Source: Escherichia phage PMBT57
Length of the DNA: 64,000 bases
Sequence record: MG770228.1
Strand: one strand, 5' to 3'
Below are positions 46,474 through 47,509 of the stretch, one piece after another; positions within the stretch are counted from its first letter, which is position 1, and each line of letters begins with the position of its first letter. The notes beneath the pieces are model-generated. The model was not told the DNA's origin. It searched no databases and saw only the letters and a program-made list of their open reading frames with translations. Position numbers and translations under genes: made by a program.

Positions 46474-46680
46474 ATGTTTAAGTTCTTAGACCTTATCTGG
46501 GCAGTCATTTTGCTGGTTGCTACAGGCTTTGTATATGGCTTCTTGCTCCCATCAATGATGTCTGCTTTAGACAGCATCATTGTTGTTATGGGCTTGATAG
46601 TCTGTATTGTGTGGCCTCTTATCGTAGGCCGTATCGTTTATCTTACAGTTAAGAAAAGGATGAGAAGAAAACATGTATAA
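46474..46680 (+). CDS. small membrane protein (2 TM), upstream partner of the SPFH gene
   Basis: Internal ATG 46474 with RBS ggag; two hydrophobic helices; stop overlaps next start. Confidence 0.5.
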   Translation: MFKFLDLIWAVILLVATGFVYGFLLPSMMSALDSIIVVMGLIVCIVWPLIVGRIVYLTVKKRMRRKHV

Positions 46681-47509
46681 GTACATTGCAGTAGCAATTG
46701 CAGGGCTAATCATTGCTCTAAGTTTAACGAGCTGCTATGACCGAGTTGAACCAGGTAATGTAGGTATTATCGTTAATCGTCTCGGTGAAGATAAAGGTGT
46801 GGAAAATGAGGTTAAAGGTGTAGGCCGTTACTGGCTCACTTGGAATGAAGAACTTTATACATTCCCGACCTTTAAGCAGATGAAGACCTATGACGGTCTG
46901 TTCTACTTCCAACTGTCTGATGGTACTCAGATAGGCCACCAGATGGCTATCAGCTATAAAGTGAACCCTACTAAGGTAACTAATATCTTCCAGACGTATC
47001 GTAAGGGAGTTAATGAAATTACTGAGCAGGATTTACGACAACGTATTGCTGATGTACTTAACAGACAGGGTAACCTGATTAACACTGATACCTTTATTGA
47101 TGGTGGTAAATCTAAGCTACTGGATAGTGTCACTGACACAATCCGTAAAGAGATGGAACCAGTGGGGATTGATATTATTGCTATCTCCTGGATTGGTGCT
47201 CCTGAATACCCTGATAACGTTAAACGTGCCATTAATGCCAAAGTAGAAGCTACTCAGAAAACTCTGCAACGTGAGCAAGAGATTCAGCAACGTGTAGCTG
47301 AAGCTAATATGGAACGTGAACAAGCTAAGGGTGTAGCAGATGCTATTCTGATTAAGGCTAAAGCAGAGGCTGATGCTATTCGTTTACGTGGTGAAGCACT
47401 CACTGAGAACCCAAATGTAATGCAACTGGAAGCCATTAATAAGTGGAATGGTACATTACCTACCACAATGATTCCTGGGGCTACTACACCTTTCGTTAAT
47501 GTGAAATAA
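46673..47509 (+). CDS. SPFH/band-7 (stomatin/prohibitin-like) protein with lipoprotein-type signal peptide
   Basis: N-terminal IAVAIAGLIIALSLTSC lipobox; SPFH-like core and coiled-coil. Confidence 0.6.
   Translation: MYKYIAVAIAGLIIALSLTSCYDRVEPGNVGIIVNRLGEDKGVENEVKGVGRYWLTWNEELYTFPTFKQMKTYDGLFYFQLSDGTQIGHQMAISYKVNPTKVTNIFQTYRKGVNEITEQDLRQRIADVLNRQGNLINTDTFIDGGKSKLLDSVTDTIRKEMEPVGIDIIAISWIGAPEYPDNVKRAINAKVEATQKTLQREQEIQQRVAEANMEREQAKGVADAILIKAKAEADAIRLRGEALTENPNVMQLEAINKWNGTLPTTMIPGATTPFVNVK

Follow-up and report, generated by a model that had tools for sequence, protein, structure and literature searches.

We analyzed a 64,000-nucleotide stretch of Escherichia phage PMBT57 (sequence record MG770228.1; hereafter the window) and found that two overlapping genes within it, at 46474-47509, belong to a conserved module that pairs an SPFH (Band_7) lipoprotein with a small membrane protein that is not NfeD. 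Sequence comparisons indicate that this two-gene module is widespread and under-annotated, which is the new point of this work. The phage is an N4-type Enquatrovirus (99% DNA identity), and the two open reading frames (ORFs) are N4 gp19 ('membrane protein' in GenBank) and gp20 ('lipoprotein'). Both genes are already catalogued in GenBank and are not new, and their presence in the window is modest as a discovery. With slightly better than even confidence, we favor the interpretation that the phage builds a periplasmic SPFH cage on the inner membrane, with gp19 as its membrane partner, and that this cage conditions the host membrane. The parts of the gene pair and its flanking hairpins mapped below are all on the plus strand.

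We searched all ORFs in 93 loci that carry an SPFH homolog, 80 of them from IMG/VR, with a profile of the gp19 family. A gp19-like ORF is located directly 5' of the SPFH gene in 87 of these loci (E from 1e-38 to 1e-5). Every IMG/VR locus carries one, although in a single case only as a contig-end fragment that was recovered in a second round (E=9e-9). In the first round, no significant gp19-like match was obtained in six of the 93 loci, namely the distant phages Clew-1, vEam_PM_6, Staph1N, phiCbK and cr128_1 and that same contig-end fragment. The best marginal matches (E ~0.03-0.04) were ORFs with two transmembrane (TM) segments 5' of the SPFH gene in Pseudomonas phage Clew-1 and the crAss-like cr128_1. 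In the Vequintavirinae myovirus BIS47, a 54-residue ORF separates the gp19-like and SPFH genes. The gp19-like partner lacks annotation in the Stx2a phage Stx2_95 (L007, 2256-2444), and likewise in the E. coli plasmid pSA186_4 (L104, 1501-1737). Both of these ORFs are intact and abut an annotated SPFH gene. RefSeq E. coli plasmids leave the small gene wholly unannotated, and the small-protein family is systematically under-called.

The association also holds when approached from the side of the small protein. Three diverse members of the gp19 family led to nine contexts, and in all nine a 275-residue Band_7 gene overlaps or abuts the small gene at its 3' end. The contexts are lambdoid prophages, with the pair on the early-left side of a cI-like repressor gene, and phage-plasmid-like contigs of ~55-95 kb, with the pair near a Tad2-like gene. 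A membrane partnership had been part of the original prediction, and it now has stronger support than it had then, from 87 of 93 loci and nine of nine independent contexts. A tblastn search of the phage collection with three divergent family representatives returned the known contexts again or no match. In phage-plasmid-like contigs from Salmonella and E. coli (L094-L099), Tad2-like (anti-Thoeris) and BPP1_LPA-family genes are found ~0.7 kb 3' of the SPFH gene, and these neighbors suggest an accessory, counter-defence neighborhood. One protein cluster (P0074; 347 residues, 8 member sequences) is an in-frame fusion of the gp19-like hairpin to the SPFH protein that retains an LTGC lipobox and has a consistent topology. 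This fusion may be real, or else a frameshift or gene-calling artefact.

The gp19 gene (46474-46680, ATG to TAA, from the ORF list and the sequence) encodes 68 residues with two hydrophobic segments (7-25 and 34-52). Of its eight basic residues, six (K/R) are in the C-terminal tail, and the loop between the helices has none. The AlphaFold2 (AF2) model is a helical hairpin (helices 3-28 and 32-67) with a break at 29-31. Modeling shows gp19 as a predicted inner-membrane hairpin, N-in/C-in, with a very short and highly conserved periplasmic turn (P26...S30). Both termini should be cytoplasmic because the basic tail and uncharged loop follow the positive-inside rule.

Searches with single gp19 sequences revealed relatives only in N4-like phages (22 phage records, 2 clusters), and gp19 itself matched PHROG 1130 (E=3e-20). 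More distant relatives could be found only with profiles, the first of which combined four gp19 proteins of the N4-like type. With a broader profile, 173 clusters were recovered from a set of 5.8 billion proteins, and a HMMER search of 1.84 billion representatives yielded 828 clusters (50% identity) at E<=1e-3. Nearly all of the 150 best matches listed are 55-90 residues long. P26, S30, G40 and P48 of gp19 are invariant in the family alignments (A2 and A3). Among 147 newly retrieved representatives, conservation is 100% for Pro24, 99% for Ser28, 97% for Gly38, 96% for Tyr5, 91% for Pro46 and 90% for Gly20; the highly conserved Tyr5 is lacking in N4 gp19. The family can be described as a hairpin of ~65 residues with the motif (Y/F)G-x3-P-x-L-(I/V)-S ... 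G ... P followed by a basic tail, and gp19 has this pattern. Judged by these conserved positions, the gp19 family is a real one and not the product of generic hydrophobic matching. It is without a Pfam entry.

We considered and rejected two assignments for gp19. The first, suggested by the likeness to NfeD-stomatin pairs in the original prediction, is that gp19 is an NfeD protein. The NfeD profile PF01957 matched neither N4 gp19 (E<=0.01) nor seven diverse relatives (E<=1), and gp19 cannot contain the NfeD OB-fold because its 68 residues are all helical hairpin, the two TM helices leaving no space for it. What gp19 does share with NfeD is that its gene adjoins, and is co-oriented with, an SPFH gene. 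The second assignment is holin or antiholin. The topology is holin-like, but no holin family in Pfam matched above noise and the gene is far from the gp60-63 cassette of N4.

The gp20 gene (46673-47509, ATG to TAA, from the ORF list and the sequence) encodes 278 residues and is 99.6% identical at the protein level to N4 YP_950498. Residues 24-210 score 84 bits with Pfam Band_7 (PF01145; cutoff 23.6, E=1.7e-23), in an alignment that spans positions 2-175 of the 176-position profile, and the whole protein matches the PHROG 200 'lipoprotein' family (E=7e-95). At the N-terminus (MYKYIAVAIAGLIIALSLTSC), a basic K3 precedes a hydrophobic core of 14 residues (I5-L18) and the lipobox L18-T19-S20-C21. 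This lipobox conforms to the pattern [LVI][ASTVI][GAS]C, so that gp20 has the sequence features expected of a bacterial lipoprotein signal. The ORF, the Band_7 match and the N-terminus thus bear out the earlier description of gp20 as a 278-residue SPFH/band-7 protein with an LTSC lipobox. The signal peptide is encoded at 46673-46735, with the lipobox at 46724-46735 and Tyr and Asp at positions +2 and +3 (sequence, alignment A1 and the lipobox tally below). The mature protein is predicted to have 258 residues, ~29 kDa and an isoelectric point of 5.5.

We modeled the gp20 monomer with AF2 from 29 homologs (mean predicted local distance difference test score, pLDDT, 77). The model consists of a signal helix, an alpha/beta SPFH core (22-178), an uninterrupted helix (181-245), and a short helix with C-terminal strands. 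The Band_7 domain, defined by PF01145, the AF2 model and Foldseek, is encoded at 46742-47302. The single long helix predicted by AF2 (47213-47407) corresponds to the 'wall' coiled-coil segment of SPFH cages. The remaining C-terminal segment (NPxxxxLEAINKWNGxLPxxM..G...PF..VK; 47408-47506) is conserved and is a candidate cage-closing region. Columns N246, P247, K257, W258, G260, P263, P273 and F274 are invariant in A1. The last 33 residues combine strong conservation with low pLDDT in the monomer model, and by analogy with solved cages we infer that this segment may be the cage cap.

Foldseek comparison with the PDB aligned 260-300 columns at E 1e-15 to 1e-8. The top matches were human prohibitin (8rrh, E=8e-15) and HflK/C (7vhq and 7wi3, E~1e-13), followed by erlin1/2, stomatin, QmcA-YbbJ (8z5g), flotillin and the major vault protein. 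All of these are proteins solved as oligomeric cages. The only sequence-level match in the PDB was the prohibitin-2 coiled coil (E=2e-3). The model shows the whole of mature gp20 to be, in predicted fold, a prohibitin/HflK/C-type SPFH protein. The nearest relatives by fold are therefore prohibitin and HflK/C rather than stomatin, the member of the NfeD-stomatin pairs to which the module had been likened. Orthology to HflC was tried and rejected, as NCBIfam TIGR01932 scored 19.6 bits (E=3e-4) against a cutoff of 134.4. gp20 is equally unsuitable as an HflK or HflC ortholog in its layout, with a lipobox in place of the TM anchor and a single SPFH gene in place of a K/C pair.

Two observations concern gp20 records. 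The protein is labeled 'SPFH domain-containing protein' in VEc25 and 'serine protease' in other phages. A Pfam scan found no protease domain in gp20, and the 'serine protease' label on many homologs (e.g., AL25, OLB145, Stx2_95 and 7t3) looks like a propagated mis-annotation. Codon 110 of gp20 (window 46999-47001) encodes the Arg of FQTYRKG, which is Arg in all 28 A1 homologs. RefSeq N4 (NC_008720) has His110, whereas laboratory wild-type and r stocks have Arg110 (N4 lysis preprint, Table S1). RefSeq N4 thus carries a change at an invariant residue, as the window, the homologs and the laboratory stocks all have Arg.

We tallied the residues that follow the lipobox Cys in 119 gp20 homolog clusters to ask which membrane holds the protein. 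The lipobox is kept in 107 clusters. Cys-Asp occurs in 49 of the 119 (prophage, plasmid and some phage copies) and Cys-Tyr/Trp-Glu/Gln/Asp in 57 (N4-like phages). In 11 clusters, one of them present on 175 contigs, Tyr replaces the Cys, which makes both lipidation and carriage by the Lol system impossible. Asp at +2 is the Lol-avoidance signal of E. coli and leads to inner-membrane retention (PMC5727369, PMC4623201). Lol trafficking is aided by a flexible linker (PMC11784454); in the AF2 model, the SPFH core of gp20 starts right after Cys21 without one. We infer that gp20 sits on the periplasmic face of the inner membrane, in the topology of HflK/C, because it has Cys-Asp relatives and Cys-less variants, lacks a linker after Cys21 and has a predicted inner-membrane partner. 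The Cys-to-Tyr sub-clade (GIIGYDRVEPG; P0081-P0091, P0100, P0104, P0109 and P0120, with P0088 being the one on 175 contigs) is carried by ~110-kb E. coli contigs and includes two clusters annotated in Klebsiella. Its members cannot be lipoproteins.

Homologs of gp20 were detected in 702 phage records. Carriers include Staphylococcus Kayvirus (as MbpS), Pseudomonas, Erwinia and Klebsiella/Cronobacter myoviruses, phiCbK, crAss-like phages, and Stx and other prophages. The module is present in 737 of 5426 complete E. coli genomes (~14%), with its locations divided about evenly between chromosome and plasmid. In N4, gp19-gp20 is located in the middle region transcribed by N4 RNA polymerase II (RNAPII) (PMC4496689), and prophage copies are on the early-left side of a cI-like repressor gene. 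The close N4 relative G7C is without gp18-gp23 and has three other small ORFs in the gp17-gp24 interval (NC_015933, L103, 9074-9861, compared with window 46085-48325). The gp19-gp20 module is accessory because G7C lacks it. The gp17-gp24 interval is a variable island, with gp18-gp23 in N4, three unrelated ORFs in G7C and another set in Moo19. Elsewhere in its middle region, G7C has a stem-loop followed by a T4 Imm-like gene ('immunity to superinfection').

In the interpretation that we favor, gp20 would be exported by Sec, lipid-modified at Cys21 and retained in the outer leaflet of the inner membrane. On the periplasmic face, its oligomers would form a ring or dome and so enclose part of the inner membrane. 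gp19 would be a dedicated membrane subunit or a client of gp20, and may take the place held by NfeD in QmcA-YbbJ or by the membrane part of FtsH in HflK/C. More speculatively, the module might be expressed early to midway through infection (in prophages, from the early-left operon), be dispensable, and condition the host inner membrane during infection or lysogeny. The likeliest way could be the insulation or sequestration of an inner-membrane component, which might limit entry by superinfecting phages or membrane damage. An effect of gp19-gp20 on the host membrane or on superinfection is plausible.

Several points weigh against this interpretation. The cage itself is proposed by analogy with solved homologous architectures and from a model of the monomer only. 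The +2 residue of N4 gp20 is Tyr, which under the simple +2 rule would send the protein to the outer membrane. An aromatic residue at +2 may also retain lipoproteins, as Seydel et al. reportedly observed in 1999. Phages carry the two genes in reshuffled allele combinations: gp20 of Moo19 (L004) is 97% identical to gp20 of Enterobacter phage SABI (L005), whereas the gp19 proteins are 40% identical. This shuffling argues against a finely co-adapted gp19-gp20 interface. The reverse combination is seen in locus L018, where gp19 is 97% identical to that of Tribble (L006) and the gp20 proteins are 71% identical. Because alleles are shuffled, any interface between the two proteins probably uses conserved residues. 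The SPFH gene of Erwinia phage vEam_PM_6 has no recognizable gp19, and a different TM protein is encoded 5' of the SPFH gene in Kayvirus (MbpV) and phiCbK (gp181). None of gp18, gp19, gp20 and gp21 matched a PADLOC-DB model at E<=0.1. A 2026 paper on another schitovirus describes the reason for the gene's presence as unclear (PMC13239085). A literature search found genome-annotation remarks and speculation, and no work that addresses the function of phage SPFH proteins or of gp19 or gp20 of N4.

We weighed four other explanations. A modulator of FtsH or another protease, mimicking HflK/C, is the one we would call unlikely but credible: an SPFH ring would capture or compete for host FtsH on the periplasmic side and change substrate turnover, with an effect like that of lambda CIII from the same early-left position and with gp19 as adaptor or decoy substrate. 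Its appeal comes from the fold and predicted topology, which are nearest to those of two partners of AAA proteases, prohibitin and HflK/C, and from the early-left prophage copies beside the repressor. N4 workers have called gp20 a 'predicted protease modulator', and several genome papers have proposed a link to lysogeny. The HflC model in NCBIfam does match weakly (E=3e-4), but gp20 falls far below the equivalog cutoff given above. The module is also common in strictly lytic phages (N4, Kayvirus, Vequintavirinae and crAss), where control of lysogeny is irrelevant. An FtsH modulator is compatible with the cage model, from which it differs only in the client. We consider it improbable that the pair is a lysis-timing or lysis-inhibition factor, in which gp19, resembling a class II holin or antiholin, and an SPFH scaffold would delay holin triggering and so contribute to the long latency and large burst of N4. 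The size and topology of gp19 are holin-like, the Kayvirus genes for MbpS and the TM protein MbpV lie between endolysin lysK and tgl (PMC7150955), and G7C, which is without the module, is reportedly without the lysis inhibition that N4 shows and that Shigella N4-like phages may show. However, the lysis genes of N4 are gp60-63 in the late region, and its holins were identified experimentally (N4 lysis preprint). The module is in the middle region, apart from that cassette, and gp19 has no holin match in Pfam. That preprint traced more than 60 rapid-lysis isolates to gp61, gp63, the terminal repeat and the gene for the virion RNA polymerase (vRNAP), and found that singleton changes failed to reproduce the phenotype. 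The readable part of the same source, whose table of singleton 'miscellaneous' alleles is an image, names no gp19 or gp20 allele, and gp20 of the classical r strain equals that of the laboratory wild type.

As a third alternative, gp20 might be an outer-membrane lipoprotein that blocks a receptor or changes the surface (like T5 Llp or phi80 Cor), or a surface or virulence lipoprotein of lysogenic conversion. The Tyr, rather than Asp, at +2 of N4-type gp20 would fit this, and PM0222 of a Pasteurella multocida prophage, an HflK/C-like protein possibly homologous to gp20, is reportedly found in outer-membrane vesicles and acts through TLR1/2 as a virulence factor (PMC9872710). We nevertheless regard an outer-membrane role as quite improbable. 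About half of the homolog clusters have Cys-Asp and some have no Cys, the conserved partner is a predicted inner-membrane protein, no linker joins Cys21 to the fold, and the phages that carry the module differ widely in host and use unrelated receptors. There is only a very slight chance that the genes are a canonical SPFH-NfeD pair, with gp19 as a minimal NfeD that aids SPFH oligomerization as YbbJ does for QmcA. An adjoining, co-oriented gene for a small membrane protein is the hallmark of SPFH-NfeD operons (PMC13086221), and the QmcA-YbbJ structure is among the fold matches of gp20. As family membership, this explanation is refuted by the sequence searches: PF01957 is unmatched, the OB-fold cannot be accommodated, and the gp19 family has a conserved motif of its own. 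QmcA-YbbJ also faces the cytoplasm, whereas gp20 is predicted to be exported.

The favored interpretation, a periplasmic cage with gp19 as membrane partner, can be taken further, though we doubt that the extension will hold. gp19-like proteins and lipoprotein-SPFH proteins might together represent a distinct class of phage-borne, periplasm-facing nanocage in which an obligate hairpin core of ~65 residues replaces NfeD and the inner membrane is walled off. If so, the device could, for example, block genome entry by competing phages or trap FtsH, and ~14% of complete E. coli genomes would carry it on prophages and phage-plasmids. SPFH proteins (prohibitins, stomatins, flotillins and HflK/C) are now known as builders of membrane cages, and the gp19 partnership suggests that such cages may employ partners other than NfeD. 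N4 is a tractable model phage, the module is small, apparently dispensable and tightly defined, and the four invariant gp19 residues are a concrete handle on the partner. With the pair in about one-seventh of complete E. coli genomes, any phenotype (exclusion, envelope robustness or protease control) would bear on the biology of lysogens. If the module has no phenotype, it would be an ordinary, annotated accessory gene pair.

At the locus itself, the 2.2-kb stretch around the pair shares 99.5% identity with Escherichia phages VEc25 and AlfredRasser; for phage N4 the figure is 98.9%. The gp19 start is preceded by a GGAG Shine-Dalgarno sequence (46465-46468, read in the sequence) 5 nt 5' of the ATG, whereas the stretch 5' of the gp20 ATG is merely purine-rich. 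The two genes share 8 nt (ATGTATAA, 46673-46680), the gp20 start lying inside the gp19 stop. Coupling of gp20 translation to that of gp19 is plausible because of this overlap and because only a purine-rich stretch precedes the gp20 ATG. The small upstream protein, with its two TM segments and translational coupling, therefore agrees with what had been proposed for it, in both its hydrophobic segments and its 8-nt overlap. The overlap is identical in Moo19, SABI and Tribble, and prophage and plasmid versions of the pair have a 1-23 nt overlap or a 3-nt gap. Both genes are under purifying selection, with ratios of nonsynonymous to synonymous substitution rates (dN/dS) in unsaturated pairs of 0.08-0.14 for gp19 and 0.02-0.09 for gp20. 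An alternative 80-residue ORF with a TTG start (46438-46680) was rejected as an ORF-calling artefact, as its start lies within a terminator hairpin and the homologs open at the ATG at 46474.

The 5' neighbors of the pair are the RNAPII subunit genes, the gene for the Hoc-like decoration protein gp17 and that for the P22-gp17-like protein gp18. The 3' neighbors are gp21, an HNH endonuclease gene, gp23 and an ATPase gene. gp18 (46085-46399), directly 5' of the module, matches Pfam PF17420, the P22 gp17 'superinfection exclusion' family (E=2e-56). gp21 (47572-47796, 74 residues) has a weak, sub-threshold zf-UBP-like Cys/His pattern, and gp23 (48155-48325, 56 residues) is apparently another small protein with two hydrophobic segments.

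Hairpins flank the pair on both sides. Upstream of gp19, GCCCTCC-TAT-GGAGGGC (46440-46456) is followed by T6, the feature extending over 46440-46462; its stem has 7 pairs, 6 of them GC, and the region has a z-score of -3.1. The T-run stops 11 nt 5' of the gp19 ATG, with only the Shine-Dalgarno sequence between them, and a scan for sigma-70-like promoters found none between the hairpin and the ATG. Downstream of gp20, AAACCCACC-ATTAC-GGTGGGTTT (47516-47538) and its T-run (together 47516-47546) form a 9-pair hairpin with a z-score of -4.45, and none of 200 shuffles was equally stable. Both hairpins are annotated as terminators in vB_Eco_AL25. A scan for terminator-like sites, with RNA folding, also identified a weak hairpin 3' of the gp18 stop (46406-46420) without a T-run of the usual quality. 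Altogether, the 4-kb stretch contains 8 terminator-like sites versus 2.4 ± 1.8 expected, and hairpins are also found 3' of gp16, gp17 and gp18, so that such flanking is not peculiar to gp19-gp20. In the window interval 45097-47546 (N4 gp16 to gp20), GC-rich hairpins with T-runs separate gp17, gp18 and gp19-gp20, so that the N4 middle region opens with a series of hairpin-bounded cassettes. Moo19 has equivalent hairpins, and this layout is found only in N4 and Moo19; in Klebsiella (e.g., Tribble) and Enterobacter N4-like phages, the pair lies within a run of overlapping genes without hairpins. Middle transcripts of N4 overlap, and the RNAPII promoter is a minimal AT-rich element from -7 to +2 (PMC4496689), a description too loose for a sequence search, so that a promoter of this kind may be present in the unit. 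The proposal of a self-contained unit flanked by terminators is thus right about the hairpins and overstated about autonomy, given how common hairpins are here, the overlapping transcripts and the hairpin-free Klebsiella relatives. The conserved unit is the gene pair and not the hairpin-bounded cassette, because neighboring genes have hairpins too and the Klebsiella and Enterobacter relatives lack them.

Finally, we compared the module with known systems. The superinfection-exclusion proteins T4 Imm and Sp, T5 Llp and P22 SieA are small, early, dispensable envelope proteins or lipoproteins of lytic and temperate phages. Their resemblance to gp19 and gp20 is a functional analogy only, without a sequence or fold relationship. 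Kayvirus MbpS is closer, belonging like gp20 to PHROG 200, with the same fold and with a gene for a small TM protein abutting its start. Unlike gp20, MbpS has no canonical lipobox (...ILLMC) and its gene pair is located in the lysis-gene region (PMC7150955); unlike gp19, MbpV has one TM helix and no detectable relation to the gp19 family. Prohibitin (PHB1/PHB2) is the best structural match to gp20 (8rrh) and has a similar size (~270-300 residues), but it is a mitochondrial heteromeric ring with a TM-helix anchor and a different partner, and identity is only 16-18%. E. coli HflK/HflC-FtsH shares with gp20 the SPFH core, the long wall helix and the C-terminal segment in a full-length fold match. 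Most of HflK/HflC lies periplasmic to the inner membrane, as is predicted for gp20. The phage protein differs in its lipobox anchor, where HflK/HflC have an N-terminal TM helix, in being encoded by one SPFH gene rather than a K/C heteropair, and in its syntenic partner, a 68-residue hairpin; any link to FtsH would be by analogy. The SPFH-NfeD operons (QmcA-YbbJ, YqiK-YqiJ, stomatin PH1511-PH1510 and FloA-NfeD) are, like gp19-gp20, two-gene units of an SPFH protein and a small membrane protein, and QmcA and YbbJ form one complex (PMC13086221). In the phage pair, by contrast, gp19 has no NfeD domain, and gp20 is predicted to face the periplasm instead of the cytoplasm.

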